Positions 2,771-61,630 are shown, counted from the first letter of the stretch. The stretch is 64,000 bases of DNA from Acidimicrobiales bacterium (GCA_044220495.1 JBGAQY010000002.1:88966-152965); one strand, 5' to 3'. Notes: generated by a model not told the origin, from the letters alone. Numbers and translations: made by a program.

Positions 2771-2774
2771 TCCG

Positions 2775-3503
2775 ATGAGTAACTGGCAAAATCAGTCGGG
2801 CCTCAATGGCGAACCAAAGACGAAGCTCTACATCGCTGCGGCTTTGATGACCGTGCTTGTCATCGTCCTGGCTGTCGTTCTCCTGAAAGTTGCCGAGTCG
2901 AATCAGAACGACAACAAGCAGAACGCGGCAGCCCAAGGTCAAGCGAGCGGCAAGACCGCGACAACTCTCGCTGACGGGGCGACGACAACAACTGATCCAG
3001 AAACCAAGGTTCCGCGCGACAAGACAACAACGACCACGGCTTATCGAGGCAAGAAGTTTCTCGACCCCAACAAAGCCGAGAGCGCGCAAGGCCTGTATCT
3101 TTCGCCCGCTCAGCTCGCTGACCGCTACCCCGAGTCGAGCTCAGGCCTGAGCCCCAAAGACTTCGATGCGTCGGTTGAGATTGCCAAAGCATTCGTATTG
3201 GCCGACACGACAGGACAAGGCGCGACACGATTCTCGCAATACTTCGAAGTCGCCGGCGGCCCGACCCCATGGGTCAGGGGCTACCAGTTCCAGTTTGCTA
3301 CAGCCATGAAGACGACCGACTCGAACATCACCAAGACGATCGTCTACTTCTCAGGCACGAAGGAAAGTGGCAGCTCGTTCTCGCAAGCTCGCGAAGTGAT
3401 CTACTTCCAAAAGACCGACAACGGCGTAACACCAATGTTGCGTAACGACGTGTTTGCACGCGGGTTTGAATCGCCAGGATACGACCTCACGATTTACGAC
3501 TGA
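2775..3503 (+). CDS. Membrane-anchored hypothetical protein with a Thr-rich linker, coupled to the upstream P60 gene
   Basis: ATG at 2775 lies 5 nt after the P60 stop. The product MSNWQNQ...KLYIAAALMTVLVIVLAVVLLKV has a single TM followed by a T-rich region. No family recognised. Confidence 0.5.
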   Translation: MSNWQNQSGLNGEPKTKLYIAAALMTVLVIVLAVVLLKVAESNQNDNKQNAAAQGQASGKTATTLADGATTTTDPETKVPRDKTTTTTAYRGKKFLDPNKAESAQGLYLSPAQLADRYPESSSGLSPKDFDASVEIAKAFVLADTTGQGATRFSQYFEVAGGPTPWVRGYQFQFATAMKTTDSNITKTIVYFSGTKESGSSFSQAREVIYFQKTDNGVTPMLRNDVFARGFESPGYDLTIYD

Positions 3504-3566
3504 GTCGACTAGTCGTTGATCGCTAACGCAAGCAGCCCCCGGAGGGCCAACGCACGATTCGACGTG

Positions 3567-5939: not shown

Positions 5940-6051
5940 AGTGCGAAAAGGCTAGTTCCGGGTTGGGACAAAGGCGGGCACCTACGAGCGGGAACTTTGT
6001 CTGATTTTCGACCGTGACGCGCGAGCTCGTGCAGGGCTCTGTAGAGCCGTC

Positions 6052-6633
6052 ATGACAGTTCTCGCCGTGCCCTCCTCGGGGCATCCAACCATCAACAGGA
6101 TCCGTGCCATACCGTCGCCGATCGACGTGACCGAAGCACTGCATGATTTCGAGAGCTTCTATCGGCGTGAGTTTCCTCGTCTTGCCGGATCACTTCGGCT
6201 TGTGTGCGGCGATCAATCTCTAGCCGAAGAACTCGCACAAGAAGCCTTTGCTCGCGCGCTCAATCATTGGGAACGCCTCGAACGCTACGACCGCCCTGCT
6301 GGTTGGGCTTATCGCACAGGCTTCAACTTGCTACGACGTCACTGGCAACGCTCGAAGTTGGCCGACATCCCAATCGATGACGCGTCGATTCAGATCGCTG
6401 CACCGACACAACGAGATGCGCCGATCGATCTCGTACAGGTGCTGTCGATCCTCCCCTTGCAACAACGTCAAGCCGTTGTGTTGCGCCACGTTCTTGACTA
6501 CTCATCGGACGAAGCTGCGGAAATCCTCGAGGTGAGCACCGGCGCATTGCGAATGACGTTGCACCGCGCCATCGCAACGCTTCGCACAAAGGCCAATCTC
6601 GAATTAGAGGACGAAGAAAGGAGCGACTCGTGA
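6052..6633 (+). CDS. ECF-type sigma-70 family RNA polymerase sigma factor
   Basis: Region 2 is AEELAQEAFARALNHWERLERYDRPAGWAYRTGFNLLRRHWQR. Region 4 is LPLQQRQAVVLRHVLDYSSDEAAEILEVSTGALRMTLHRA. Confidence 0.85.
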   Translation: MTVLAVPSSGHPTINRIRAIPSPIDVTEALHDFESFYRREFPRLAGSLRLVCGDQSLAEELAQEAFARALNHWERLERYDRPAGWAYRTGFNLLRRHWQRSKLADIPIDDASIQIAAPTQRDAPIDLVQVLSILPLQQRQAVVLRHVLDYSSDEAAEILEVSTGALRMTLHRAIATLRTKANLELEDEERSDS

Positions 6634-7181
6634 ACAATCAATTGAGTTCGCTCTTCGAACCCATGGCGATACCACCAAATGGGCTCGAAGACGTACGCCG
6701 CAGGGCTCGCCGCCACGCCATCGTTCACCAATTACGCGTGACGATCGCCAGTGCAATCGCCGTTGTCATGACCGTTGTCGGCTTACTGTTCGCGTCGACT
6801 TCACCAAACTTCTCGATAGCGATGCAAGGCAACTCGGCCTCGGTAGCAGACTCGTCGGCTGAAGCACCAGCCAACCCTGCGGCCGACGCCGGCGTCGCAT
6901 CGAGCCCACAAGCAAAGTCGAATGACGCACTCTCGGCCCGACCTTCGACGACGGAACACACGGTCGAAGACGATCGCCACGACGTGTTATCGAGGCTCGG
7001 CTACTACTACCTGTTCTTGAGCCTGCCCCTTGCGATGTTGGCCGCAATCGTGGCGCTAGTCACGACCAAGCGAGCCTCAACACCTCAACGGCGGTTGCCT
7101 GTCGCGTCACGCGCACTGTTATTGATTGCGTTGATCGGCCCGCTCGTTGCTCAAGCTCTGCGTTGGATCAAACTTCCATAA
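6630..7181 (+). CDS. Putative membrane anti-sigma factor
   Basis: GTGA start/stop overlap with the ECF sigma gene. Short cytoplasmic N-terminus, then a TM (ASAIAVVMTVVGLLFAS) and C-terminal TMs. No recognisable zinc-binding anti-sigma motif, so the call rests on position. Confidence 0.45.
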   Translation: MNNQLSSLFEPMAIPPNGLEDVRRRARRHAIVHQLRVTIASAIAVVMTVVGLLFASTSPNFSIAMQGNSASVADSSAEAPANPAADAGVASSPQAKSNDALSARPSTTEHTVEDDRHDVLSRLGYYYLFLSLPLAMLAAIVALVTTKRASTPQRRLPVASRALLLIALIGPLVAQALRWIKLP

Positions 7182-8829
7182 CGACAGGAACGATCATCGG
7201 CTTGCGCCGTGTGCGCTCGCTGACAAACGATCCCAACGCCTTGCGCGCAACGCGCCTCACGTTTTCAAGATCTTTCATCGCGTCAGGGTCGAGTTGTTCG
7301 AGTCGCTCTTTGACAGTCGCTTCCGCTTCGCCCAACAGCTCTTCAGCCTCTGGCGCGTAAACCCAACCTCGCGTGAACACCTGTGGGCCGCTAATCACGC
7401 GTCCTTCAGCAACATCGACCGTGACGACAACCATCACCACGCCCTCTTGAGCAAGCACTTGGCGATCTCGCAGCACGCCTCGGCCAACATCTGATGTGCT
7501 TCCGTCGACGTACAAGTAACCGGCTGGCACTTGCCCCACAAAGTCGATTCCGTCGTCGGTTATCTCAACGACGTCGCCGTCTTCACACAACAACACGTTG
7601 TCGGGTGAGACGCCCATCTCTACGGCCAGACGGCTGTGATGAGTGAGATGACGGAACTCGCCGTGCACGGGGATGAAGTATTCAGGTTTGGCAACGTTGA
7701 GCATCACCTTCAACTCGTCTTGTCGAGCGTGCCCACTTGCATGGACGGGCTCAAGACCTGAGTGCACAACCTCAGCACCGCGCCGATAGAGACCGTCGAT
7801 GACTTTGCCAACACTTGTTTCATTGCCGGGGATCGGGTGCGAACTCAGAATGACAACATCGTCTTCACCGATGTCGAGCCACTTGCTCTGACCCGACGCC
7901 ATCAATGAAAGGGCCGACATTGGTTCGCCTTGTGAACCGGTCGAAATGATGCATAGCTTGCTGGGAGGGTAGTCCTTGGCTTTTTCGATCGGTATCAGCG
8001 CGTTCTCGTCAATGTGCAACAAGCCCATCTCGCGGGCCAATGCAACGTTCTTGCCCATCGAACGCCCGAGCGTTGCAATCATGCGTCCGCTAGCAATCGC
8101 TGCGTCAGCAACTTGTTGAACGCGGTGAATGTGACTCGCAAAGCAAGCAACAACAAGACGTTGATTGCGATGGCGAATGAACACCTCGCGCAACACATCA
8201 CCAATGCTCGACTCACTCGGCGTGTGACCGGGTTCTTCGGCATTGGTTGAATCGGAAAGCAACAAACGGATGCCGTCACTGCCCGCCAACGCACCAATGC
8301 GGGCAAGGTCGGCGCGGCGACCATCGATCGGTGTTAGATCGAGCTTGAAATCACCCGTGTGAAACACGACACCTTGAGGAGTGTGAAAAGCAAGTGCGAA
8401 CGCGTGTGGCACGGAGTGCGTTGTCGGCACGAACTCGACATCAAACGGACCAATCGTGCGCCGCTCACCGTCTTGCACAGACACAAACTGTGTGCGATCG
8501 AGCAGGCCGGCCTCTTCGATGCGATTGCGCGCAAGCCCGAGCGTGAGTTCGGAGCTGTAGATCGGAAAGCTCACATCTTTCAACAAGTACGACAACGCGC
8601 CCATGTGATCTTCGTGGCCGTGCGTGATGATTGCGGCTTCGACTCGATCAGCGTTCTCGTGCAGGTATGTGAAGTCAGGCAGCACCAAGTCGACACCGGG
8701 CATGTCGGTGTCGGGGAACATGAGGCCTACGTCGATCAACAACAAACGGTTGTCAATTTCGATAGCTGCGCAATTGCGCCCGATCTCACCGAGACCGCCG
8801 AAAAAATAGAGACGAACAGGATCAGCCAT
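7168..8829 (-). CDS. rnj: Ribonuclease J
   Basis: 553 aa. Metallo-beta-lactamase/beta-CASP motifs include ITHGHEDHMGAL. The length and the FFGGLGEIGRNC N-terminus are typical of RNase J. Confidence 0.95.
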   Translation of the reverse strand: MADPVRLYFFGGLGEIGRNCAAIEIDNRLLLIDVGLMFPDTDMPGVDLVLPDFTYLHENADRVEAAIITHGHEDHMGALSYLLKDVSFPIYSSELTLGLARNRIEEAGLLDRTQFVSVQDGERRTIGPFDVEFVPTTHSVPHAFALAFHTPQGVVFHTGDFKLDLTPIDGRRADLARIGALAGSDGIRLLLSDSTNAEEPGHTPSESSIGDVLREVFIRHRNQRLVVACFASHIHRVQQVADAAIASGRMIATLGRSMGKNVALAREMGLLHIDENALIPIEKAKDYPPSKLCIISTGSQGEPMSALSLMASGQSKWLDIGEDDVVILSSHPIPGNETSVGKVIDGLYRRGAEVVHSGLEPVHASGHARQDELKVMLNVAKPEYFIPVHGEFRHLTHHSRLAVEMGVSPDNVLLCEDGDVVEITDDGIDFVGQVPAGYLYVDGSTSDVGRGVLRDRQVLAQEGVVMVVVTVDVAEGRVISGPQVFTRGWVYAPEAEELLGEAEATVKERLEQLDPDAMKDLENVRRVARKALGSFVSERTRRKPMIVPVVMEV

Positions 8830-8894
8830 TTACCCGACAGACTAGAGGCTTTGGTGCGCCAACAACGGCCCAATGCGTTGATTAGGGTCTTGTC

Positions 8895-9761
8895 GTGGAA
8901 GACGGCCGACACAACGACGATTACGAGTCAGATGCCGACTCTTTCGACGATGCTGCCGAATCCGCCGACTCTGCAAACGACAGCCCCGAATCGAATCAGC
9001 TTCGAGCCAGTCGCCCAACGCCTAAGCGCCCAAGCAAGCTCATCGTCACGCTGACACTGACACCGATCATTGCACTGACGATTGCTGCGAATGTCGGCCA
9101 ACGAACGGCAACTGCACTAGTTGACAGCCATCCGCTGTTGTTGCTGTGGCTCAACCCGAGCAACCTGATCATGGCCGCAACAACGCCGGCCATCGCAGCA
9201 ACGGTCTTTTTCACAGTTGTGTTGGTCCGCCGGCTGATTTGCGACCCCCTCTACTTCTTGCTTGGTCGTTGGTATGGCGACGCCGCTGTGCGTTGGATCG
9301 AAAAGAAGTCGCCCGACATTGGTTCGATTCTCACCACGCTCGAAGAGTGGTTTCCGCGATGGGGTCGCGTGATCATCTTTTTCTACCCGCACGCGGCAGT
9401 GATCTTGATGGCCGGCGCTTCGTCAATGAGCCTTGCAACCTTCATGCTCTACGACTTCCTCGGAACCGTGGCCGTCATCATTGCGATCCGCTGGTTTGGT
9501 GACGTGGCCAAAGATCAGATCACAGGTGTCACAGGCTGGATGGGCGATCACCAGATTGCGTTCGGCATCTTGTCGGTCGTCTTGTTGGCGTACTACTTCT
9601 GGAGCTTCCGCAGCAAAGACACCGCCGCCGTGCCCGGGGTGCACCAGATGGAAGACGAACTCGAAGAAGAGAGCCGCCTCGACCCCGACCAAAGCGCGAG
9701 CGGCACCTCAAGACGGCCGCCACCGACAGGCTCAGCCGACGACGACACCGATTGGCGCTGA
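8895..9761 (+). CDS. Polytopic membrane protein, possibly DedA/VTT-like, with acidic termini
   Basis: Several hydrophobic segments and a CDPLYFLLGRWYG motif that weakly resembles the VTT/DedA core. Family assignment is tentative. Confidence 0.45.
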   Translation: MEDGRHNDDYESDADSFDDAAESADSANDSPESNQLRASRPTPKRPSKLIVTLTLTPIIALTIAANVGQRTATALVDSHPLLLLWLNPSNLIMAATTPAIAATVFFTVVLVRRLICDPLYFLLGRWYGDAAVRWIEKKSPDIGSILTTLEEWFPRWGRVIIFFYPHAAVILMAGASSMSLATFMLYDFLGTVAVIIAIRWFGDVAKDQITGVTGWMGDHQIAFGILSVVLLAYYFWSFRSKDTAAVPGVHQMEDELEEESRLDPDQSASGTSRRPPPTGSADDDTDWR

Positions 9762-9855
9762 CCAGGGAAAACGCCTCTGCGGGCGTTGGCGAGCAGGCAC
9801 AAGATCCCTGCCAGAGGCCTTTTTTCGGCCGTTTTGGTTGCCGATATAGAGAGAG

Positions 9856-12800
9856 ATGGCCGACGAGCACGAAATTCAGCTGACGCTTCGCGTCTCGCGC
9901 TCGGCCCCCGGTATCGATGCGCTGCTGACGAGCGACCCCAACGCGCCAATGAGTCAGGTGCTCGAACAGTTCGCGAAAGCTCACCCCGGCCCCTACTTTC
10001 TCGACGGCCGGGAACTCACCCCCGTTGGTCGTCTCGCTGACAGCGCGCTACGCAATGGAGCTGTTGTCTACGCCGGACAACCCGGCCCGCGCGCAGCAAC
10101 GCCAAAGCTCGAGCTCGTCGTCGTTGGTGGTGCTGATGCCGGGCGACGCTTTGCACTCACACCCGGAGTGTTTGCCGTTGGTTCTAGCGACGAAGCCGAC
10201 ATCGTGTTGCACGGCCACCGTCTTGCGCCTGTCCACTTCTCGGTTTCGATCTCGGGCAAGCAGATCTTTCTCGACAACTTCCGCAAACCTCAATCAATCT
10301 TGCTCGAAGGTAAACCAGTCGACGGCGAGTGCACGATCGAGCTCGACCAGCTCTTTCGAGTCGGCGACACGCTGTTTGAGATTCGTCGCGCTCTCAAGTC
10401 TGACGTCGACACCGATGCAGACGTAACCGTCGACGGCAACGGACGTTTGGTGTTCAACCGACCGGCGCGCATCCCCGTTCGCCGAACACGGTCGAACTTC
10501 GAATCACCCAAGAAACCGCAAGCGCCAACAAAACAAGGTTTTCCGTGGGCCCAAGTTTTCATTCCGCTCGTGTTCTCAGTCGGTGCTGCCTACTTGTTTC
10601 ACTCGCCAGCGTTCTTGATGCTCGGCTTGATGGGCCCGGCCCTAGGTCTTGCCAGCGCCTTCTCAAACAAGCGTCAGTCGAAGAAAGATCATGCCAAGGC
10701 AACGGCCGACTTTGGCAACGCAATGGTGCGGTTGCGTCAAGCAGCCACCGATGCGGCCCAAGCCGAGAGCAAGGGCCTGCGTGCACGACGATGCGACGCC
10801 GCGATGGTTGCCGACATTGCCATGCTCCCTCGTCGCCGCCTGTGGGAACGGCGCGTTAGCGACAAAGACTTTCTGACCCTTCGACTGGGTTCAGCAGACA
10901 TGTTCTCAAGTGTTGAGGTCGTAAAGTCGTTTGACGCCGAGAACTTTGAAGCGCCAGTGATGTTTCAAGCGCCCGTCTCGGTCAACCTACGCAAGGTACG
11001 CAATCTTGGTGTTGCGGGCCCAATGAACGCCGTGCACTCAGCGGCTCGTTGGCTGGTTACTCAACTCACGACGCTTCACTCACCGAGCGACGTTCGCTTG
11101 TTTCTGCTGGCGAGCTCCGACAGCAAGAACGAGTGGTCGTGGATGCGTTGGCTTCCGCACACTGCAACAAGCCACGAGCCGGGAGAGCCTTTCTGCACGA
11201 TCGCAACTGACCGTTACGCGCGTGACGAGCACATCAAGGCGTTGCTGCAAATTCTCGACCTTCGCCAGCAAGCAAAAGAACGACGCGAAGAGATCGTGTG
11301 GCAGTCAGTCGTCGTGGTCTACGACGGCATTCGCGACCTTCGTGAGTTGCCCGGGGTCGCCCGCTTGTTGCGGGAGGGCCCTGAACACTCGATCTATTCA
11401 ATCGGCCTCGACTCTGCCACCAGTCGACTTGCTCAAGAGACTGCCGCCGAGATCGCCATCGAGCCGCAGTACGCAAGCACCGCTCGCCTGCGTGTTGCCG
11501 GACAAGAAACCGTCGAACGGTTCATCGTCGACCAAGTGTCGAGCACGTGGTCAGAAGACATCGCCCGTTCGATTGCCCCGTACATAGAGGCCGGTCGCGA
11601 AGTCGAGGGCGAGATGCTCCCCGCCGCGCTGAATTTCGTCGAGATGACCGGCGTAAATCTCGACAACCCTGACTCAGTGCTGGCTCGTTGGTCATACGGC
11701 GACGGGCGCACAACGCGCTTTCCGATTGGCAAGTCACTCGACGGTGAATTCAGCCTCGACCTCAAACACGATGGTCCGCATGGGCTTGTCGCCGGAACAA
11801 CAGGCGCCGGCAAGAGTGAGTTCCTACAAACGCTGGTTGCATCACTCGCTCTCGCGAATCGACCAGACGCGCTCAACTTCTTGCTGATTGACTACAAGGG
11901 CGCCAGTGCGTTCTCGAGCTGTGAAGACTTGCCGCACACAGTTGGTCTCGTCACCAACCTTGACGGACATCTCACCAAGCGCGCGCTCGTTGCCCTCGAA
12001 GCAGAACTGCACCGACGCGAGCAGCTTCTGAAAGACATGCACGCAAGTGACGTAGATGCTGCGTGGCTTGCCGACCCCGAGTTCTCTGCCGAGAACGGTC
12101 TTGCTCGTCTCGTGATCGTGATCGACGAGTTCGCAGAGCTCAATCAAGAGCTTCCCGACTTCATACAAGGCCTCATTCGCGTTGCGCGCATCGGTCGATC
12201 ACTCGGCGTGCATTTGATCTTGGGAACGCAACGGCCCGCTGGTGTCGTATCGCCTGAAATGCGTGCCAACACGGGCTTGCGTATTGCCTTGCGCATGGAA
12301 GACCGAAACGACAGCACCGAGGTACTCGAATCACCAGAGGCAGCAACTATCTCTCGCCGCACGCCAGGCCGCGCTTACGCGCGACTGGGCGGCGCGTCGT
12401 CAATCGTGCCTTTCCAGACTGCGCGAGTCGCTGGCCGCCGTCGCGACATCGTCCAAACGGTCACTCCCCCGCGTCTCGTGCAGTTCAGTTGGGAGCAAGT
12501 TGGTCGGCCGCTGTTCAAGACGAAGACCGACGACGTTGTCGAGAGTGAAACAACAGACCTGCACGCCCTGGTGACGTTGATCAACAAGGCGGCCGAACTA
12601 TCGGCTATCCCTGAAGCGCGTTCACCCTGGCTGCCGCCGTTGCCAAAGGCTTACGTCGTGCCACTCGACGATGAAGTTGTTTTTGGTCTGATCGACGAGC
12701 CGAAGAAGCAAACCCAACCCTTCGCGGTCTACGACCTCGAAACCTCTGGGCACTTGCTGTTCGCTGGCTCAGCACGATCAGGACGTTCAACAGCCCTTCG

Positions 12801-14172
12801 CACTCTCGCCGGCGCTATCGCAAACACGTGGTCACCAAGCGACTGTCACATTGTCGGTCTCGACTTTGGTAACGGTGCATTGCAATCACTGACGGCGCTG
12901 CCGCACTGCGGTGTGGTTACCGGACGTTCCGAGAACGAACGCATCGGGCGCGTCATCTCGCGCCTTCGTGACGAGGTGACATTGCGCCAAGGGCTCTTTG
13001 CCCGTGCGGGATTCGGCGACATCAAAGAACAACGACAACACTCAGTGCCCGACGAGAAACTGCCATACATCGTGGTCTTCTTGGATCGATGGGAGGGCTT
13101 TCTCAGTGAGTTCTCGGTCGACATTGCATCAGAAATGCCCGACGAAGTGATGCGACTATTGCGCGAAGGTCCTGGTGTTGGATTGCGCTTCGTGATCACG
13201 GGCGACAACGCAATCTTGTCTGACCGCGTCTCCGCCCAGATCGACGAGAAGATCGTGCTGCGCCTCAACAACAAAGACAGCTACGCAATTGCAGGTATTG
13301 CGGCCAAGTCGATTCCTGACGACATGCCCGACGGCCGAGGAATTCAAGTCGACACGCATGCCGATATTCAGATCGGCCTTCTCGCCGAAGACTCATCGAC
13401 CATCGAGCAAAACAGGGCGCTCGCCAACATCGCTGAGCTCGCCCGCAATCGCTGGCCCGAAGCTTCGGGTGAACAAGCACCGCTACGAGTCGACGCCTTG
13501 CCCGAAGTGACAACACTCGAGAACGCTCAACAGTTGCCAATCGTTGGCAACCACCGGAGCGCCCTGTCAGTGCTGGTCGGAGTCGGAGGCGACCGTCTTT
13601 CGACGTTCTACGTAGACATGCTCGAAGAAGGCCCATTCTTTGTCGTTGCTGGTCAAGCACGATCGGGTCGCAGCACGGCTGCTCTAGTGATGGCTGAGTC
13701 AGTACTGGCCAATGGTGGTGCCGTAGTTGCGGTGTGCCCTCGTCGATCACCGCTCGAAGGCCTCGCCGGAATGGCAAACGCTGCGGTGTTCCATGGGAAC
13801 GACAACGAACTAGAGGCTCTGGTTGAAACACTCAATTCATTTGAGCAACCAGTACTCATCATCGTCGACGACAGTCATGTCATTGCCGGCAACACCTTTG
13901 ACATCGCGCTGCGCGACGTAGTGAAGAAACACTCCGACGAAGTTGCTGCCGTCGTGATCGGATCAATCGACGACATGCGCTCACAACTACAAGGCATCGC
14001 CGTTGACGCGCGCCGTTCAAAACTTGGTCTGCTGTTCTCGCCCGAGATCGCCCTCGACGGCGAGCTCGTCGGCATGCGCTTGCCGCGCAACAAACTTGGT
14101 CGCACGGCTGCCGGTCGCGCCGTGTTCTGTGATCACGGAAACGCGACAGTCGTGCAGATCCCACTTGCGTAG
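9856..14172 (+). CDS. T7SS-type EssC/EccC-like ATPase: N-terminal beta-grasp-like region, one FHA domain, two TMs, three FtsK/SpoIIIE P-loop domains
   Basis: 1438 aa. The FHA-like stretch (about aa 85-177) reads LELVVVGGADAGRRFALTPG...VGSS.EADIVL...VHFSVSISGKQIFLDN...LLEGKPV...GDTLFEIR. The TM pair is FPWAQVFIPLVFSVGAAYLF / AFLMLGLMGPALGLASAF (nt 10540-10665). Domain 1 Walker A is AGTTGAGKS (nt 11791-11817) with Walker B LVIVIDEFAEL. Domains 2 and 3 have degenerate P-loops, GSARSGRST (12766-12792) and GQARSGRST (13651-13677). Confidence 0.85.
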   Translation: MADEHEIQLTLRVSRSAPGIDALLTSDPNAPMSQVLEQFAKAHPGPYFLDGRELTPVGRLADSALRNGAVVYAGQPGPRAATPKLELVVVGGADAGRRFALTPGVFAVGSSDEADIVLHGHRLAPVHFSVSISGKQIFLDNFRKPQSILLEGKPVDGECTIELDQLFRVGDTLFEIRRALKSDVDTDADVTVDGNGRLVFNRPARIPVRRTRSNFESPKKPQAPTKQGFPWAQVFIPLVFSVGAAYLFHSPAFLMLGLMGPALGLASAFSNKRQSKKDHAKATADFGNAMVRLRQAATDAAQAESKGLRARRCDAAMVADIAMLPRRRLWERRVSDKDFLTLRLGSADMFSSVEVVKSFDAENFEAPVMFQAPVSVNLRKVRNLGVAGPMNAVHSAARWLVTQLTTLHSPSDVRLFLLASSDSKNEWSWMRWLPHTATSHEPGEPFCTIATDRYARDEHIKALLQILDLRQQAKERREEIVWQSVVVVYDGIRDLRELPGVARLLREGPEHSIYSIGLDSATSRLAQETAAEIAIEPQYASTARLRVAGQETVERFIVDQVSSTWSEDIARSIAPYIEAGREVEGEMLPAALNFVEMTGVNLDNPDSVLARWSYGDGRTTRFPIGKSLDGEFSLDLKHDGPHGLVAGTTGAGKSEFLQTLVASLALANRPDALNFLLIDYKGASAFSSCEDLPHTVGLVTNLDGHLTKRALVALEAELHRREQLLKDMHASDVDAAWLADPEFSAENGLARLVIVIDEFAELNQELPDFIQGLIRVARIGRSLGVHLILGTQRPAGVVSPEMRANTGLRIALRMEDRNDSTEVLESPEAATISRRTPGRAYARLGGASSIVPFQTARVAGRRRDIVQTVTPPRLVQFSWEQVGRPLFKTKTDDVVESETTDLHALVTLINKAAELSAIPEARSPWLPPLPKAYVVPLDDEVVFGLIDEPKKQTQPFAVYDLETSGHLLFAGSARSGRSTALRTLAGAIANTWSPSDCHIVGLDFGNGALQSLTALPHCGVVTGRSENERIGRVISRLRDEVTLRQGLFARAGFGDIKEQRQHSVPDEKLPYIVVFLDRWEGFLSEFSVDIASEMPDEVMRLLREGPGVGLRFVITGDNAILSDRVSAQIDEKIVLRLNNKDSYAIAGIAAKSIPDDMPDGRGIQVDTHADIQIGLLAEDSSTIEQNRALANIAELARNRWPEASGEQAPLRVDALPEVTTLENAQQLPIVGNHRSALSVLVGVGGDRLSTFYVDMLEEGPFFVVAGQARSGRSTAALVMAESVLANGGAVVAVCPRRSPLEGLAGMANAAVFHGNDNELEALVETLNSFEQPVLIIVDDSHVIAGNTFDIALRDVVKKHSDEVAAVVIGSIDDMRSQLQGIAVDARRSKLGLLFSPEIALDGELVGMRLPRNKLGRTAAGRAVFCDHGNATVVQIPLA

Positions 14173-14208
14173 AACCTGCACGACTTAGGGAGTTACTAGA
14201 AGTCGTTC

Positions 14209-14493
14209 TTAGTGAACGGTGCTGGCGGTGTCGGCCGAAGCGAAGTTGGTGCTGGCCGTGTTGACTGCCGCCGAAATTTCCTGAAGAGCGGTGGTCATTT
14301 GGTTGGCCGCTGCGTGCCATGAGCTGTAGGCGGCGTCGAATGCGCTACCCGATGGGGCAACCCAGCCTTCGGCCAACAGGTCACTCACGAGGCCACGAAA
14401 TGTCGTGATGTCGGTGAGCAGGTTGGCGGCACCAGTGCGCAATTGCGAGCTGGTGGTGGCCATGTGCTCGGTGTTGATGGTCATCTTGGGCAT
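14209..14493 (-). CDS. WXG100 (ESAT-6-like) family small secreted protein
   Basis: 94 aa, a predicted two-helix hairpin. The central turn is EGWVAPSGSAF (nt 14347-14364), a W...G variant with an expanded loop. The C-terminal motif is NFASAD (FxxxD, nt 14230-14244). An SD-like GAAGGGA lies 7 nt upstream of the ATG at 14493. Confidence 0.75.
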   Translation of the reverse strand: MPKMTINTEHMATTSSQLRTGAANLLTDITTFRGLVSDLLAEGWVAPSGSAFDAAYSSWHAAANQMTTALQEISAAVNTASTNFASADTASTVH

Positions 14494-14629
14494 GAAAACG
14501 TCCCTTCAAAAGGTAAGTGTCAGGACGGTCCCCCCGTCCAAAAATCCCTGGGTCAAACGACCGGGTGAAAACCGAGGGTGGCGAACTTCTGAGGACTTGG
14601 CAAGGGTTCGAGGCGAGAAATATTTTTCC

Positions 14630-14659
14630 TAGACAAGAATCATGATACGTAGGCATACT
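14630..14659 (+). promoter_or_regulatory. Candidate sigma-70-like promoter for the toxin operon, inside the 204-bp divergent intergenic region
   Basis: TAGACA (14630-14635), an 18-nt spacer, then CATACT (14654-14659). GGAG lies 7 nt before the GTG at 14698. This is a pattern match only. Confidence 0.2.
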
Positions 14660-14697
14660 CGGCTTCAGGCCTATTTCCCGCCTTTTGGAGCCTTTGC

Positions 14698-14982
14698 GTG
14701 CCGCGTTTTTCTGTTGATACAGCCGAAGTCCAAGCCGCTGCGTCGGGCGTTGCTTCCGTCGCTGACCAGATCGCTTCGTTGAATCCTGCGCTTGCGTACA
14801 TAGAGCAGGCATGCGTTGCCATGAATGGCGGCCTCGTGGCGTCGAGAGCAGGTTCCTTTTCCGGATCCCTTTATTCACTTCTCAGCCGAACACGGACGAA
14901 CGTGAATTCGCTGCAGACTTCTCTGGGCCTCGCGGTGACCAATTACGACATGGCCGACGCCGCTTCTAACGGTGGCGGTTAA
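14698..14982 (+). CDS. WXG100-superfamily-like helical hairpin partner or adaptor protein (no Trp in the turn) with a C-terminal YxxxD export-type motif
   Basis: 94 aa. The N-terminus FSVDTAEVQAAASGVASVADQI is typical of ESAT-6-like helices. The C-terminal NYDMAD (YxxxD) is at nt 14944-14958. Its stop overlaps the next start (TAATG at 14980-14984). Confidence 0.6.
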   Translation: MPRFSVDTAEVQAAASGVASVADQIASLNPALAYIEQACVAMNGGLVASRAGSFSGSLYSLLSRTRTNVNSLQTSLGLAVTNYDMADAASNGGG

Positions 14983-16712
14983 TGGCCTTTACGCTCTCAC
15001 AAATTCTTGCCTGGCGCGCCGGAGAGATGTTTCGGTCATCCACCAACTTGCGCAACATGAGTTCGAACGTCGACGGGCTTGTTGTTCAATTCACCAACGC
15101 GTCTGACCTTGGTGGTGCCTGGACTGGCGCCGCGGGGCAATCAGCGCAAAACGCTGCAACACAGGTCGGCCACGGCGTGCAGGCCCTTAGCCGATCACTA
15201 AATAACGCCGCGGGAATTATGTCGTCATGCGCAATGCAGATGGAGTGGATTCAAGCGCAGGTGCATAACGCGCAGATGTTTGCGGCGCGTGCAAACGCGA
15301 CGCTCGACAACGCGACGGGAGCTTGTAGGGTCAACCAGATCTTTGAGGCTGGACCCGACCCCACCACCGGATTGATCGATCCGGCAGTGCAGGCGTCCGT
15401 TGACAAGACAAATGCCGACAATGCCTCCAATGCCGCCAACGCTCAGCGCACGGCACAAGATGCAATCCGTCGTGCGACGCAGCTCGATAACGAAACCGCT
15501 GGGCGCCTCATGAACGCGTTTGTATTCGATGGCGCATCGCGCGCCTGGATCAACTACGAAGCTGGCCGCCTCACAGGCCACCTCGATGCCACGATTGACA
15601 AGGCTCTTCAGCTCTCCGACCGTTTGCTACGGCTTTCAAATCAATCGCCCGGCACCCTCAACGAGCTGTACGCGCTGCTTAGTTCAATGAGTCCCGGACA
15701 GCTCGCTGTGTACTACGAGCAACTGCCCCAGTCACAAGCCGATGCTTGGGCCTACCTCGTGAGCCGCCAGCTCTACCCCAATGGTCAAAACGGCGACAGG
15801 CCGATACCACCGTCAACGGACTTCGTGAATTTTGTAAGCCACAGCGCCAAGACACTTCAGTCTGGCGAATGGATCGACGCCGCTAACAAGTTGCCCTTCT
15901 TAGAACCGCAGCTTTACAAAAGCACCGATGGATCGGTCGCTTATCAGTACTACTACGGCCTCCCTGGCACCGATCCCAATCTCGACACCGCATACGACAT
16001 CAATCAAGGCGCAGTCGGTGACTGTTACTTACTCGGTACCATCATCGCGTTTGCCAATCGCGATCCCGACTTCCTCAGTCGAAACATGGTGCTAAACGCA
16101 AACGGCACAGTAACAATCACTCTCTATCGAGATGGTGTGGCTATCCCAGTGACTGTTACGAACGACGTTCCAGTGAACGTAAATGACCCGGGCGACATCA
16201 TTTATGCCCATCCAACGACTCGCGACTACGACGTAAATATGACAGCCGCGCTTTACGAAAAGGCTTTTGCTCAGCTCAACGGCGGTTACGCAGCACTTCA
16301 CGGGGGCAGGCCATCAGACGTAATGGTCGCGCTCACTGGGCTAAACAATGAGCCCATCTGGGCGCCTTCTCTGATGACTGGAGAGCCGCTACCCGACTAC
16401 GTCGCACCCGACGGGCCCATCTGGGTTTCGACACTATCGGCGAACTTTGAAACGATCGCAGGGGTGTTCGAGGCAGGTCAGCCGGTGACACTGGGCTCGA
16501 TTGGAGAGTCTGACACGTTGTTCGTGAATGACGCGCAAACAATCGTCGGAAATCACGTATACGCCGTCATAGACGTGAATCGAGAGACGCAAATGGTGAC
16601 AATCCAAAACCCCTGGGGAGCCAATGTGGGTGCACCCGAGTTTCAAGAAGTGAGCATTGACGACATAAGAGACTACTTCACCGTCGTGAGCACGACTCAG
16701 ATTCCCAAATGA
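14982..16712 (+). CDS. Putative T7SS substrate or polymorphic toxin: WXG/LXG-like N-terminal domain fused to a calpain-like (peptidase family C2) cysteine protease domain
   Basis: The N-terminus has LGGAWTGAAGQSAQNAA (WxG at nt 15120-15128). The C-terminal domain aligns by eye to the calpain core in four blocks: DINQGAVGDCYLLGTIIAFA (Cys codon 16023-16025), AALYEKAFAQLNGGYAALHGG, IVGNHVYAVIDV (His codon 16554-16556) and VTIQNPWGANVG (Asn codon 16608-16610). Confidence 0.85.
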   Translation: MAFTLSQILAWRAGEMFRSSTNLRNMSSNVDGLVVQFTNASDLGGAWTGAAGQSAQNAATQVGHGVQALSRSLNNAAGIMSSCAMQMEWIQAQVHNAQMFAARANATLDNATGACRVNQIFEAGPDPTTGLIDPAVQASVDKTNADNASNAANAQRTAQDAIRRATQLDNETAGRLMNAFVFDGASRAWINYEAGRLTGHLDATIDKALQLSDRLLRLSNQSPGTLNELYALLSSMSPGQLAVYYEQLPQSQADAWAYLVSRQLYPNGQNGDRPIPPSTDFVNFVSHSAKTLQSGEWIDAANKLPFLEPQLYKSTDGSVAYQYYYGLPGTDPNLDTAYDINQGAVGDCYLLGTIIAFANRDPDFLSRNMVLNANGTVTITLYRDGVAIPVTVTNDVPVNVNDPGDIIYAHPTTRDYDVNMTAALYEKAFAQLNGGYAALHGGRPSDVMVALTGLNNEPIWAPSLMTGEPLPDYVAPDGPIWVSTLSANFETIAGVFEAGQPVTLGSIGESDTLFVNDAQTIVGNHVYAVIDVNRETQMVTIQNPWGANVGAPEFQEVSIDDIRDYFTVVSTTQIPK

Positions 16713-17275
16713 AACGCAGCGTCACCCCTCTCGTCGCCGCCGTCATGGCGCTCGTCGCAGCATGTTCACCCAGTCGCTCGGCTGACGGCCAAGCAACTGA
16801 CCTCATGCCGCCAAACACGCAGGCGCAAACACGTGAGCCCGTTGTCGCTCAACCAAACACAGCCGAACACCTTTCGGCACACTTCTCGAACGGAATGCCC
16901 AACGGCGCCGATCTTTCGGTCGATGTGAATGGCGAGACGATGTCTGTCACGGTGTCGGGCATCCGTAGCGGAGTTGCTCCAAGCATCAACGTCATCGACG
17001 GCATGACCGGCGAAGCACTCACAGCGACTACACCACTCGAACAGACATATTTGTGGAACACAGATACTCCAGGTCCACCGCCACAACAGTGGGAGCGGGG
17101 CTTTCACTTTTCTCACACCCCAGTGCGCATTGAGCTCGCTGTATCACCCAACTACACAGCGACGTTCGACATCGATCGCAACGAAACTGGCGTCTTGACT
17201 AGCAATCAGTTGCTTCCGGAACGTCCCGTTCAGTCAACCGAACGAGTCTCGCAAGACATGACACCGACGCGCTGA
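16709..17275 (+). CDS. Lipoprotein, a putative cognate immunity or inhibitor protein for the upstream protease
   Basis: ATGA overlap with the toxin stop. The signal peptide and lipobox read MKRSVTPLVAAVMALVAAC|S (Cys codon 16763-16765). No family recognised for the mature part. The immunity role is inferred from position only. Confidence 0.6.
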   Translation: MKRSVTPLVAAVMALVAACSPSRSADGQATDLMPPNTQAQTREPVVAQPNTAEHLSAHFSNGMPNGADLSVDVNGETMSVTVSGIRSGVAPSINVIDGMTGEALTATTPLEQTYLWNTDTPGPPPQQWERGFHFSHTPVRIELAVSPNYTATFDIDRNETGVLTSNQLLPERPVQSTERVSQDMTPTR

Positions 17276-17281
17276 CATTCG

Positions 17282-18028
17282 CTAGTCAGCGTCGTTGAGC
17301 ACACTTTCGAGCCCAGTTGTCACACCTGGGGCAAGCGAGTCAAGAGACTTCGCCGCCAGCAGCGCGCCGGGCATGAACGACGACCGATCGAAGCTGTCAT
17401 GACGAAGCGTGAGCGTCTGTCCTGTGGCGCCAAAAATTACCTCTTCGTGCGCCAACAATCCCGGCAGGCGAACGGAGTGAATGTGAATGCCGTTTTGCTC
17501 AGCACCACGCGCGCCTTCAAGTGAAACGTGTTCGGTGGCGTCGGGGGCCCAGGGCTCTGTGCGGTGCTTCGAAATTTGCTCAGCCGTGAGTCGAGCGGTG
17601 CCCGACGGTGCGTCTTTCTTCTTCTCGTGATGAAGTTCGACGATCTCGACGGCGTCGAAGTATCGCGCGGCCATGCCGGCAAAGCGCATCAACAACACAG
17701 CACCGATCGAAAAATTCGGAACCAAAAAACAGCGCAAGTTCGCGACGCGAAACGCCGTATCGAATTGCTTGACTTCAGCGTCGGAGAAACCAGTGGTGCC
17801 AACAACAGCGTTGATGTTGTTGTCAGCCAACCAAAGCAGGTTGGCCGCAGCCGCTTCGTGATTGGTGACATCGATCACCAAGTCGATCGAACGACCCAAC
17901 AGTGACTCCAACGAATCAGCCGAACCTATCCTCGACACGAGCTCGAGCGACTCGTCAGACTGCACGGCGGCGCTGATGGCTGAGCCCATTCGTCCGTATG
18001 CACCTACAACTGCTACGCGCTTCATCAA
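17282..18028 (-). CDS. dapB: 4-hydroxy-tetrahydrodipicolinate reductase
   Basis: 248 aa. N-terminal Rossmann motif VAVVGAYGRMG, an internal ELHHEKKKDAPSGTA motif, and typical DapB length. Confidence 0.9.
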   Translation of the reverse strand: MMKRVAVVGAYGRMGSAISAAVQSDESLELVSRIGSADSLESLLGRSIDLVIDVTNHEAAAANLLWLADNNINAVVGTTGFSDAEVKQFDTAFRVANLRCFLVPNFSIGAVLLMRFAGMAARYFDAVEIVELHHEKKKDAPSGTARLTAEQISKHRTEPWAPDATEHVSLEGARGAEQNGIHIHSVRLPGLLAHEEVIFGATGQTLTLRHDSFDRSSFMPGALLAAKSLDSLAPGVTTGLESVLNDAD

Positions 18029-19272
18029 GCCACCTTTGCGGGTTTCAGATTGTCATCAACTGGACCAACAGCGACTACGACGGGTTCGACGTCGAACAAG
18101 TTCTGTGCCACCGATGCAACATCATCGAGCGTGACGCTATTGATGCGCGCCATTACTTCGTCAGTTGTCAAGACGTCACCGTGCAACAGCAGGCTGCGAC
18201 CAATGCGGCTCATGCGCGCGCCACTGTCTTCAAGATTGAGCGCAGTAGTCGTGCGCAAATGTTGTTTGGCACGATCGAGTTCGGCCTGAGTTATGCCTTT
18301 TGCTTTGATTGCTGCGAGCTCGGTCTGCACGACGTCGAGCACTTCGTTGGCTCGACGAGGCGCCGTGCCGACATAGACAACAAACTCGCCAACGTCGTGA
18401 TACGGGGTGTAAGACGAGTAGACGGTGTAGGCCAGGCCGCGCCGCTCACGAACTTCTTGAAACAACCGGCTCGACATGCCGCCACCCACAACAACATCGA
18501 GAAGCGACGTTGCATAACGCAGATTGCTATGCCGATCAGGGGCCGGCACCCCTACAACGAGGTGGGCTTGATCAGACGGTCGACGGTTAACCACTCGTGC
18601 TCCGCTCGCAACCGTCGGCGCCGTGCGCTGCGGTCGCGCACCGCCGTTGCGTTGTTGCCACCGGTCGCCAACGCGACGAACGATGTCGTCGTGATCGAGT
18701 GCGCCCGCAGCGGCAAACACCATGTTGTTAGAGCGATAGTGGTGATCGAAGAAACTGCGAATGCTTTCGCGATTCATCGCCGTAATGCGTTCTTCATCGC
18801 CAAGCACTTCACGACCCAGTGTGTGTCCTTTGAACATCGCTGCGCTCAAGTACTCGTGAGCGAGGTCAGCGGGCTCGTCGCCACGCATCAAGATCTCTTC
18901 GAGTACCACTTGTCGCTCACATTCGATCTCATCGACATCGAACGCCGGCGCACACATGATGTCGCACAAGATGTCGAGCGCGATTTCGCAGTCTTCCGCC
19001 AACACGCGCACATAGAACGCCGTGCACTCTTTGGTCGTGAAAGCGTTCATGTCTCCGCCAACACCATCAATGGCTTCGGCAATCTCGAGCGCACTACGAG
19101 AGTCGCTGCCTTTGAACAACAAGTGCTCCAAGAAATGCGACATGCCCCATTCAGCAGCTTGCTCGTCGCGCGAACCAGTGCCGACCCAGAAGCTGAGTGC
19201 AACAGAACGAACGTCGGCCATACGTTCGGTTACTACCTGAAGGCCGCTGTCGAGAGAAGTTGTGCGAATCAT
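18025..19272 (-). CDS. pepR: M16 family zinc peptidase (PepR-like)
   Basis: Inverted zincin motif HFLEHLLFKG. The start at ATG 19272 (MIRTTSLDSGLQVVTE) is preferred over the track start at 19323. Overlaps the dapB start. Confidence 0.9.
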   Translation of the reverse strand: MIRTTSLDSGLQVVTERMADVRSVALSFWVGTGSRDEQAAEWGMSHFLEHLLFKGSDSRSALEIAEAIDGVGGDMNAFTTKECTAFYVRVLAEDCEIALDILCDIMCAPAFDVDEIECERQVVLEEILMRGDEPADLAHEYLSAAMFKGHTLGREVLGDEERITAMNRESIRSFFDHHYRSNNMVFAAAGALDHDDIVRRVGDRWQQRNGGARPQRTAPTVASGARVVNRRPSDQAHLVVGVPAPDRHSNLRYATSLLDVVVGGGMSSRLFQEVRERRGLAYTVYSSYTPYHDVGEFVVYVGTAPRRANEVLDVVQTELAAIKAKGITQAELDRAKQHLRTTTALNLEDSGARMSRIGRSLLLHGDVLTTDEVMARINSVTLDDVASVAQNLFDVEPVVVAVGPVDDNLKPAKVA

Positions 19273-25782: not shown

Positions 25783-26376
25783 TCATTGAACCGGGGAGAA
25801 ACGCTGCTCGCTTGCGCGACCGCCTAGACCTACTCGACGCTCGACTCGTCGAAACACTCTCCAACAGAGCGCAAGCCAAACCGCTCCGACGATCCATCCA
25901 CCCAGAACATCTGTCGGCCAATGAACACCGAGATACACCCTCGACACGCCAGCGCCCAGACTCACGAGCGCAACTGCAGCTGTGGCCGCCGGGACCGATC
26001 TAACGACGCGCCACCGCAACAACATGAGTGCCGTCAGTCCGTAAGCAACGACGGCCTTCATGGCGTGACCCGAGGGAAATGCAAACCCGCCCGCTTGCAC
26101 TAGGAAATCAGCAGAATCAGGACGTGCCCGCGCGAACAACAACTTCAAGCATGTGTTAACAACCTGCGCGCTCGATGCTGCCAGCAACAAGAAAGCGCCA
26201 TCTAGGAAACGACGTTTGGTCAACGCATAAACGATCAACGCTGCGATGACGACTGTAGTTACAAGTCCGCCCGCCAGATTGGTCAAAACTCGAAACCCCT
26301 CCGTCAGCCACGCAACGCGATGTGAGATCACCCACTGATGAATCTCCGAGTCGAAAGCCTGCACTGCTTCAATCAT
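25783..26376 (-). CDS. PAP2-family phosphatase (undecaprenyl-diphosphate / lipid phosphatase type)
   Basis: Acid-phosphatase motifs KLLFARARP, PSGHAM and SRVYLGVHWPTDVLGG, on a polytopic protein. Confidence 0.85.
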   Translation of the reverse strand: MIEAVQAFDSEIHQWVISHRVAWLTEGFRVLTNLAGGLVTTVVIAALIVYALTKRRFLDGAFLLLAASSAQVVNTCLKLLFARARPDSADFLVQAGGFAFPSGHAMKAVVAYGLTALMLLRWRVVRSVPAATAAVALVSLGAGVSRVYLGVHWPTDVLGGWIVGAVWLALCWRVFRRVERRVGLGGRASEQRFSPVQ

Positions 26377-61593: not shown

Positions 61594-61630
61594 AGCACCC
61601 TAAGTCGCGTCATACGCGACTTAGGGTGCT
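61594..61630. repeat. Palindromic element, copy 1 (17-bp stem, 3-nt loop) between the DUF559 stop and the trmD start
   Basis: agcaccctaagtcgcgt-cat-acgcgacttagggtgct. It overlaps the DUF559 stop codon (61629-61631). The core is related to 62614-62676. Confidence 0.85.

Follow-up and report, generated by a model that had tools for sequence, protein, structure and literature searches.

The locus described here raises the question whether a block of five genes lying among housekeeping genes of an Acidimicrobiales bacterium can be a type VII secretion system (T7SS), and what such a system would export. The block covers positions 9856-17275 (7.4 kb) of a 64-kb stretch of DNA (GCA_044220495.1 JBGAQY010000002.1:88966-152965), referred to as the window, which belongs to a 162-kb contig; our statements on absent core genes hold for this window. 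The original prediction, made from the sequence alone, had read it as a compact T7SS-like island with an ATPase, a WXG100 protein, a helical partner, a protease toxin and a lipoprotein. From our analysis the block is probably a type VII protein-export module of an undescribed subtype together with one effector cassette. It contains what generally marks a T7SS, namely a membrane ATPase of the EssC/EccC class with several P-loop domains and a WXG100 gene alongside, and by analogy to known systems the WXG100 protein and the effector are predicted to be exported in dependence on the ATPase. The five open reading frames (ORFs; 1438, 94, 94, 576 and 188 aa in this order, Table 1) were recovered with the predicted coordinates and strands, and so were the TAATG overlap of the partner gene with the 576-aa gene (14980-14984) and the ATGA overlap of the 576-aa gene with the lipoprotein gene (16709-16712), both read from the sequence. 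All five proteins are singletons in a collection of 15 billion proteins.

The ATPase, its WXG100 protein and their family

The 1438-aa protein had been described as an FHA-bearing ATPase with three FtsK/SpoIIIE domains similar to EssC and EccC, and family models, structures and domain make-up agree with this. Pfam detects FtsK_SpoIIIE (5e-55) and Yop-YscD_cpl/FHA (3e-12), the NCBIfam models rank EssC (TIGR03928, 575.7 bits, 2e-172) before EccCa (374 bits), EccCb (307 bits), FtsK (54 bits) and TraB (25 bits), and the best PDB matches are EccC from T. curvata (261 bits) and YukB from B. subtilis (235 bits), with FtsK at 60 bits. The scores side with the T7SS ATPases and not with FtsK or TraB. 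Two transmembrane (TM) helices are followed by the P-loop domains D1 to D3, of which D1 is canonical while D2 and D3 carry an arginine in Walker A, a pattern as in EccC. Among 12 aligned family members the Walker residues of D1 (K653, D757-E758) are invariant, as are G971, S975, G976, R977 and S978 in D2 and G1266, G1271 and R1272 in D3, where S1273 is nearly invariant. As a domain of the D3 type docks the substrate signal in EccC (PMC10765036), D3 of the window ATPase may by analogy have the same role.

The N-terminus of the ATPase was modelled with AlphaFold (residues 1-280, mean confidence (pLDDT) 82.9). In this model residues 7-73 are arranged as beta-beta-alpha-beta-beta with a pLDDT of 70-94, and a profile of residues 1-78 matched the ubiquitin-fold structure 2mlb (E 4e-6) and the ubiquitin-like (Ubl) domain of TINCR (E 0.003) in the PDB, followed by weak matches to FAT10, RAD23, ISG15 and NEDD8 (E 0.016-1.3). 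We therefore predict with moderate confidence that a Ubl domain is fused to the ATPase. In a Foldseek search with the N-terminal model matches to FHA dominated the list and the Ubl domain was not displayed. The FHA domain behind it has lost its phosphothreonine-binding motifs (GR is changed to GS, SxxH to APVH, and NG is absent), which are retained in the relatives P0002-4, P0027 and P0118.

The convergent gene encodes, as predicted, a WXG100 protein, with matches above the cutoff to Pfam PF06013 (54.5 bits, cutoff 27.3; 1.5e-14) and TIGR03930 (52 bits, cutoff 44.85) and an FxxxD motif at its C-terminus (F84-D88). One detail had to be corrected, since its central motif is W-V-A (W-V-A-P-S-G). 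The profile of the WXG100 family best matches homodimeric EsxA structures from Firmicutes.

Among the candidates scored, 358 homologues of the ATPase were found at E<=1e-10, mostly from Actinomycetota. They are about 1450-1500 aa long, show 35-47% identity, come from Streptomyces, Actinomadura, Nocardioides, Mycobacteriales and soil metagenomes, and carry in their sources only the name 'FtsK/SpoIIIE domain-containing protein'. To describe their surroundings we called the genes in 84 homologous loci, 54 of them with both flanks, and clustered the neighbours. In 35 of the 54 two-flank loci a WXG100 gene is at most 1 kb away from the ATPase gene, in 7 more at most 10 kb, and WXG100 is the sole neighbour that recurs family-wide; no cluster of EccB/D/E, MycP, EssB or EsaA was present among the clustered neighbours of the 84 loci. 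The other recurrent neighbours are lineage-specific and include a 667-aa TM and BTAD-like protein at position -1 (20 loci), small proteins of a WXG-like type (17 loci), 480-aa proteins that are helical at the head and rich in TM segments at the tail (26 loci), in Nocardioides (L005) a Ser/Thr kinase gene immediately upstream of the ATPase gene, and a divergent operon with a conserved TadA-like ATPase (about 20 metagenomic loci, for example L102, L117, L122 and L130, and the Streptomyces locus L003). Because the L003 counterparts of these operon genes bear T2SSE and T2SSF domains, the operon is suggestive of a Tad-like pilus locus, which echoes the Tad adjacency known for T7SSg and T7SSh in Bacillota (PMC11217815).

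Beside the closest homologue of the ATPase (L002, 47% identical) we observed at 3563-9851 a 561-aa ThiS/beta-grasp protein, a transglutaminase-core protein and an immunity-like protein with a T6SS_Tdi1_C domain. In that lineage the beta-grasp protein might serve as a Ubl in trans or as a component similar to EccD.

The calpain cassette

The first gene of the coupled operon had been taken for a helical partner of the WXG type, and this was supported by a profile comparison with hhalign (85% probability against the WXG100 profile, E 6e-6). The protein carries the YxxxD motif as NYDMAD (Y83-xxx-D87), in which Tyr83 is invariant and which reads NYxxAD in homologues, and its homologues stand directly upstream of a calpain gene in the loci L086, L170 and L171. 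For the 576-aa protein the predicted combination of a WXG-type head and a calpain-like protease also held. Its residues 20-97 align to the WXG100 profile with 82% probability (E 1e-5, tryptophans aligned), and in the AlphaFold model (pLDDT 84.8) the helices 13-38 and 50-103 bracket a W47-T-G49 turn, in which W47 and G49 do not vary among four full-length homologues. The Pfam WXG100 model stays below its cutoff both for this N-terminus and for the partner; LXG (PF04740) is absent from the matches of the 576-aa protein at E<=0.1, and the motif is WxG. An aromatic-xxx-D/E 'export arm' (YxxxD or FxxxD) beside a WxG or LxG turn is the bipartite secretion signal of T7SSa and T7SSb (PMC10765036).

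At its C-terminus the 576-aa protein has a peptidase C2 core, which matches the cores of calpain-1, 3, 5 and 9 in Foldseek (E 2e-9, TM-score about 0.6) and in which the triad Cys348/His525/Asn543 is invariant in 32 homologues. Judged from sequence and model the protein is predicted to be an intact and active calpain-type cysteine protease. The third gene encodes a lipoprotein, as had been stated, with a signal peptide and the lipobox LVAA-C19 (MKRSVTPLVAAVMALVAA-C19). No relatives of it were found in Pfam, NCBIfam or the PDB, and we regard it as a candidate for an inhibitor or immunity protein.

When 1.84 billion representatives were scanned exhaustively with HMMER, three full-length relatives of the 576-aa protein were returned, besides hundreds of calpain-like proteins from actinobacteria whose N-termini differ. 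The most informative relative lies in L170, a locus from another sample with a GC content of 0.58, where the C-terminal half of the ATPase (55% identical), a convergent WXG100 gene (56%), a 92-aa partner with the motif NYRNAD, a calpain protein of 555 aa (28%) and, coupled to it, a gene of 114 aa follow each other and are then joined by an ABC-2-type permease gene and not by dapB. The layout from the ATPase onward thus recurs in another context, and at that divergence only function would hold it together. In three more cases the cassette stands without an adjacent ATPase gene, as is usual for effector cassettes. In L086 a partner gene and a calpain gene, whose product is 43% identical to that of the window in the HMMER scan and 37% in a full-length tblastn comparison, are followed by the gene for a TM-anchored protein homologous to the lipoprotein (39% over 57 aa). 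In Cellulomonas L088 the calpain gene stands between the genes for a small helical and a TM-anchored protein, and L171 encodes a partner, a calpain protein and a lipoprotein. For L171 no ATPase gene lies within 10 kb, and the cassette probably shares its contig with the ATPase homologue P0010, as both records name a contig of 236,159 bp. Each of the five cassettes has a tightly coupled gene downstream of the calpain gene, and in four of them the product of this last gene carries a lipobox or an N-terminal TM anchor.

Downstream of the cassette in L088 (Cellulomonas sp. URHE0023, 14450-18699) we noticed a second run of pairs of a small helical and a large protein (88/280 aa and 94/434 aa) and behind them two paralogues of 240 aa that are nearly identical, which looks like a further effector-immunity array. 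The sequencing run of the window contig (SRR28480386) also contains a diverged second cassette of partner, toxin and anchored protein (L086/L087 and L001), which may either be a paralogue within one genome or belong to a relative that lives alongside.

Export model, rival readings and place among T7SS subtypes

Pfam searches of the window, covering about 50 genes, found no gene for EccB/D/E, MycP, EssA/B, EsaA or TsdD/H/I. This extends to the whole 64 kb what had been stated for at least 8 kb on either side. A separate EsaB/YukD gene is also absent from the window, where Ubl is present only as the ATPase fusion. Neither a Pkinase protein nor a large Ig-like protein with signal peptide was found in the 64 kb, and tblastn against the window gave no match for the kinases of L003 and L005 or for any other neighbour from L002, L003 and L005, including the T7SS_signal and ThiS-domain proteins. 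Within the 64 kb searched, the module would thus appear self-contained or minimal.

In the export model that we propose the ATPase would oligomerise in the membrane, probably as a hexamer, with the paired TM helices lining the channel, as drawn from T7SSa and T7SSb. The fused Ubl and FHA domains would serve assembly in cis, a task that in other systems falls in trans to a separate YukD/EsaB protein or to the Ubl domain of EccD; assembly requires YukD, which binds YukB at its FHA and DUF regions (PMC12637312). Because the phosphothreonine pocket of the FHA domain is lost, assembly would be independent of a kinase. The WXG100 protein would be exported as a homodimer with a cofactor role, and the 94-aa partner would pair with the N-terminal hairpin of the 576-aa protein, placing its YxxxD arm beside the W-x-G turn as a bipartite signal that may dock on the ATPase. 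Once exported, the protease would cleave proteins of neighbouring cells, either at the outer face of their membrane or in their wall, and the lipoprotein on the outer face of the producer's membrane would block it there. An action on the cell envelope is suggested by the putative immunity partner, which is apparently extracytoplasmic. A related case is TelC-TipC of Streptococcus intermedius, in which the T7SSb toxin TelC, a lipid II phosphatase with an LXG head, acts outside the membrane and the immunity protein is surface-exposed. As the candidate immunity protein of the window is extracytoplasmic, an action at the outer membrane face like that of TelC is predicted for its toxin; the two differ in that the window enzyme is a predicted calpain-type protease whose immunity protein is a candidate only.

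Several observations weigh against reading the block as an export module with an effector. The EssC score of the ATPase is below the TIGR03928 cutoff of 778.4 bits, the Ubl assignment rests on a model and a moderate profile match and has no counterpart in a match to Pfam YukD, and the WXG100 protein has W-V-A in place of W-x-G, a change shared by its L170 orthologue, while other family members show W-x-G or Y/F-V-T. The downstream proteins of the cassettes are mostly without detectable homology to one another, and the 114-aa protein of L170 has no signal peptide or TM segment, so that an extracytoplasmic immunity protein is not universal. An alignment of the N-terminus of the 576-aa protein, searched against an index of 5.8 billion proteins, found nothing on other toxin domains in a search that also did not recover the query itself, probably because the Ala/Gln-rich sequence swamped the word index; the four full-length relatives all carry calpain. 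Membrane partners may also be encoded outside the window.

This last point leads to the most serious rival, in which the module is incomplete and the ATPase and WXG100 protein need a core elsewhere (EccB/D/E/MycP-like, EssB/EsaA-like or TsdD/H/I-like), the island being an outpost of ATPase plus effector. We consider this plausible, somewhat short of an even chance, as every characterised T7SS depends on additional membrane proteins (PMC11217815, PMC12637312), some family members are accompanied by genes particular to their lineage such as the Nocardioides kinase of L005 or the 667-aa TM and BTAD-like protein of 20 loci, and our view of the genome spans 64 kb. It is countered by the lack of any candidate component in these 64 kb, by WXG100 as the only gene recurring family-wide across 84 loci, by the same compact layout in the other genomic context of L170, and by the fusion to the ATPase of the Ubl domain that is supplied in trans in other systems. 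Another rival accepts export and takes the calpain-like protein for a protease of the producer's own use in nutrition, processing of surface proteins or a maturation like that by MycP, with the lipoprotein as substrate, anchor or maturation factor. No characterised calpain-family T7SS effector, antibacterial or other, turned up in the literature searched for it, the downstream proteins are poorly conserved, the one in L170 looks cytoplasmic, and T7SSa has a dedicated machine protease in MycP (PMC11217815). We nevertheless find own use rather unlikely, since a partner, a WXG-headed enzyme and a coupled small gene are the standard order of T7SS toxin-immunity loci (PMC11217815, PMC10765036), and the cassettes, which are also found as orphans, have a rare and patchy occurrence (one exact copy among 15 billion proteins) that suits accessory effectors better than housekeeping enzymes. 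That the ATPase is a DNA translocase like FtsK or TraB, with the WXG100 gene adjacent by coincidence, would be in line with the automatic naming of homologues as 'DNA segregation ATPase FtsK/SpoIIIE', and is extremely improbable. We reject it on the profile scores (FtsK and TraB against 576 bits for EssC), on the three tandem P-loop domains without a gamma domain, on the presence at 3567-5939 in the same window of the genuine FtsK, which has the alpha, gamma and 4TM domains, and on the WXG100 adjacency, which recurs in 35 of 54 loci.

A further rival concerns the history of the block and not its function. The original prediction had it inserted at the junction of dapA and rnj. The RNase J of the window is 64-75% identical to that of metagenome-assembled genomes of Acidimicrobiales and Acidimicrobiia, which assigns the window to an uncultured member of the Acidimicrobiia. 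In these relatives dapA stands directly upstream of rnj in five of six (L007, L008, L009, L011 and L012, whose sequence reaches far enough upstream), and L008 and L009 have dapB, a di-iron protein gene, dapA and rnj within about 2 kb and no island. This part of the claim is supported. In the closest relative (L006, rnj 75% identical, similar GC), however, an ORF for a PspA-like protein replaces dapA at rnj, so that the junction is fluid or rearranged in this sublineage regardless of the island; in the window tblastn found no dapA anywhere. The GC content of the island (0.579) is nearly that of the window (0.582), GC at third codon positions is similar, and no tRNA genes (in 1-30 kb), integrase or meaningful flanking repeats were found around the island, so that a recent transfer from a distant donor is not supported. 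The block could therefore also be an old resident of the lineage, beside which the dapA-rnj junction was rearranged for unrelated reasons. The even composition, the lack of mobility signatures, the equally dapA-less junction of L006 and a sigma/anti-sigma pair between rnj and ftsK that is likewise specific to the window genome favour this. The five relatives with dapA upstream of rnj, among them the two with an island-free run from dapB to rnj, and the L170 module beside an ABC-2-type permease gene, which must have moved at least once, do not, and we hold an old resident possible, though on the unlikely side.

Returning to the export module with its effector, we compared it with known subtypes, and it fits none of those compared (T7SSa, T7SSb and T7SSd). 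The types T7SSa-j were defined by Garrett, Higginson and Palmer in 2024 (PMC11217815), with T7SSd as the only other actinobacterial type; it comprises TsdA, TsdC with a phosphothreonine-competent FHA domain, the kinase TsdD, TsdH and TsdI, has no Ubl, and occurs in Olsenella and Bifidobacterium (PMC11217815). With T7SSd the window shares the actinomycetotal host, an N-terminal FHA domain on the ATPase, a single WXG100 gene, the lack of a separate ubiquitin-like protein, and candidate toxins with small WXG100-like partner genes nearby. In contrast to T7SSd it has no TsdD kinase, TsdH or large Ig-like TsdI in the 64 kb, its ATPase has a fused ubiquitin-like domain, and its FHA domain has lost the motifs GR, SxxH and NG that are kept in 100, 98 and 90% of TsdC members (Table S1 of PMC11217815). 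For D1 and D2 we used reference rows machine-read from the PDF of Fig. S2 of PMC11217815, a comparison that is indicative and involves no tree. On these rows the window domains are 43-49% identical to EssC and to TscC-TsjC and 31% (D1) to mycobacterial EccC, and D1 does not lie nearer to TsdC than to any of the Bacillota types; on these noisy rows TsdC came last among the types other than EccC, with 153 bits against 172-201.

The likeness to T7SSb lies in an ATPase with FHA, two TM helices and P-loop domains whose best NCBIfam model is EssC, in a single WXG100 protein with a profile closest to homodimeric Firmicutes EsxA, in a ubiquitin-fold element tied to the FHA region, and in an effector that has a helical N-terminus, a Lap-like partner bearing aromatic-xxx-D, and an immunity-like gene downstream. 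Unlike T7SSb, which has two FHA domains and a separate Ubl, the window ATPase has one FHA domain and a fused Ubl and remains below the TIGR03928 cutoff, genes for the pseudokinase EssB/YukC, for EsaA/YueB and for EssA are absent from the window, the effector has WxG and no Pfam LXG, and there is one partner gene instead of two or three. T7SSa/ESX-4 is found in the same phylum, and the T. curvata EccC as best PDB match and the YxxxD motif of the partner point in its direction. In the esxEF-cpnT locus small WXG-type genes stand upstream of the gene for the toxin CpnT, and in the window, too, a small WXG-type gene precedes the toxin gene. The differences to T7SSa are FHA and Ubl on the ATPase, the low D1 identity to the mycobacterial EccC reference, the absence of EccB/D/E and MycP from the window, and one WXG100 gene in place of an EsxA/EsxB pair.

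The combination of this ATPase architecture with a calpain effector had been described as not known to be characterised, which is correct in so far as we found none that is characterised, and has to be qualified as fusions of WXG100 and calpain in Herpetosiphon aurantiacus and Segniliparus rugosus were already listed in 2015 and considered likely T7SS toxins by a reviewer (Rawlings 2015, PMC4631099). These fusions also have a WXG-type N-terminus on a peptidase C2 domain and no calcium-binding domains. They were listed from domain scans without gene context, whereas the window fusion is linked to an ATPase, a WXG100 protein, a partner and a lipoprotein, a linkage that recurs in L170, and has an N-terminus that Pfam does not call WXG100. 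T7SS, WXG100 partners, toxin-immunity cassettes and WXG100-calpain fusions (PMC4631099) are thus already known. We found no earlier description of the ATPase family as a T7SS subtype, of its fused ubiquitin-like domain, of its consistent lack of a linked core gene besides WXG100, or of a calpain cassette linked to the machine.

The irreducible translocon of a T7SS and the roles of its ubiquitin-like and FHA elements are open questions which this module addresses. In the ATPase family Ubl and FHA are fused in cis, WXG100 is the sole constant neighbour, and at least two lineages package a single effector cassette, which together make the block a small clonable test case of five genes and 7.4 kb. 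We tentatively propose, with a modest chance of being right, that the family is a self-sufficient two-gene T7SS, in which one polypeptide with Ubl, FHA, channel helices and three ATPase domains exports across a monoderm envelope together with the WXG100 protein. If so, the block would combine machine, effector and immunity in one portable unit, and an unrecognised T7SS subtype would be widespread in Streptomyces, Actinomadura, Nocardioides and Acidimicrobiia. The main text of PMC11217815 mentions neither Streptomyces nor Acidimicrobiia, and its supplementary files are without Streptomyces. As the ATPase family is common in Streptomyces and soil Actinomycetota and unmentioned in that survey of T7SSa-j, a substantial diversity of actinobacterial T7SS may be unclassified.

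The block within the window

The island is flanked by a minus-strand run of housekeeping genes (ftsK, rnj, dapB, M16 peptidase, pnp, ribF and truB). The lipoprotein and dapB genes converge with 6 bp between their stop codons, and the WXG100 gene converges with the ATPase gene at 36 bp from its stop codon.

Table 1: Features of the block and its flanks, in window coordinates.
Feature	Position	Strand	Remarks
RNase J (rnj)	7168-8829	-	flank of the island
DedA/VTT-domain membrane protein, 288 aa	8895-9761	+	between rnj and the ATPase gene; weak VTT_dom match (E 3.7e-6), below the Pfam cutoff
EssC/EccC-class T7SS ATPase, 1438 aa	9856-14172	+	NCBIfam, Pfam and PDB profile matches
Predicted ubiquitin-like (beta-grasp) domain, ATPase residues 7-73	9874-10074	+	AlphaFold and profile-to-PDB
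FHA domain, ATPase residues 85-178	10108-10389	+	Foldseek TM-score 0.89, root-mean-square deviation 1.0 A to CT664 FHA
Two TM helices, ATPase residues 231-279	10546-10692	+	AlphaFold helices 231-248 and 252-279, pLDDT >90; hydrophobic sequence
P-loop domain D1	11725-12435	+	Walker A GTTGAGKS (K653), Walker B D757-E758; Pfam FtsK_SpoIIIE at residues 629-820
P-loop domain D2	12673-13395	+	Walker A Arg977 replaces Lys; EccCb-type match over residues 914-1326
P-loop domain D3	13498-14169	+	Walker A GQARSGRS; homologous to EccC D2-D3 structures 4lya, 4n1a, 5fv0
Inverted repeat	14148-14185	.	17-nt arms, 4-nt loop; spans the ATPase stop codon, between convergent genes
Core WXG100 protein, 94 aa	14209-14493	-	Pfam and NCBIfam matches
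Divergent intergenic region	14494-14697	.	sigma-70-like hexamers (consensus matches) facing the toxin operon; GGAG 8 nt before the GTG start
WXG100-like partner, 94 aa	14698-14982	+	hhalign; weak EspC match
Calpain-like protein, 576 aa	14982-16712	+	
Helical targeting domain, residues 1-180 of the 576-aa protein	14982-15521	+	W47-T-G49; AlphaFold helices 13-38, 50-103, 134-179
Helical middle domain, residues 187-303	15540-15890	+	AlphaFold; common to bacterial calpain-like homologues with other N-termini
Calpain (peptidase C2) core, residues 319-571	15936-16694	+	Pfam PF00648, 74.8 bits (cutoff 23.8), 8e-21
Lipoprotein, 188 aa	16709-17275	+	signal peptide and lipobox judged by eye; translationally coupled to the 576-aa gene
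DapB	17282-18028	-	flank of the island

That rnj and dapB flank the block was confirmed, with the addition of the DedA/VTT gene between rnj and the ATPase gene, which the prediction had not listed. This gene is not found beside rnj in the relatives and not conserved beside homologues of the ATPase (singleton cluster); it is non-syntenic like the island, and its membership in the module is uncertain. The inverted repeat at the ATPase stop codon is possibly a bidirectional terminator, as read from its sequence and position, and was not picked up by the terminator scan. Promoter and terminator scans of the window gave sites no commoner than in shuffled sequence.

Between rnj and ftsK (6052-7181) lie genes for an ECF-type (extracytoplasmic function) sigma factor of 193 aa and a 183-aa membrane protein, which could be its anti-sigma factor. 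Because rnj and ftsK are adjacent in L006 (about 250 bp apart), the pair would be a second lineage-specific insertion beside the island.

Two proteins without a family, one of 748 aa (40056-42302, minus strand) and one of 382 aa (33270-34418), were considered as parts of the machine and rejected, as nothing ties either to a T7SS. The 748-aa protein has a zinc-ribbon-like CxxC pair at its N-terminus and an extracytoplasmic domain at its C-terminus, together with a long region of Glu/Arg-rich repeats (ERAE/ERLE), an acidic stretch and a single TM helix. A 298-aa protein (61629-62525, minus strand) has a weak restriction-endonuclease-like C-terminal domain (REase_MTES_1575, below the Pfam cutoff), and at 1391-3503 the gene for a 459-aa NlpC/P60 cell-wall hydrolase overlaps with the ORF behind it, which encodes a mucin-like protein of 284 aa rich in Thr and Pro. 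The window contains three DedA/VTT-domain paralogues (8895-9761, 26369-27046 and 31779-32423), two of which cluster at 25.7-32.4 kb with a PAP2 phosphatase, a TM protein similar to lysyl-phosphatidylglycerol synthase, a DUF347 membrane protein and a two-component system, in what looks like an envelope-lipid remodelling cluster.

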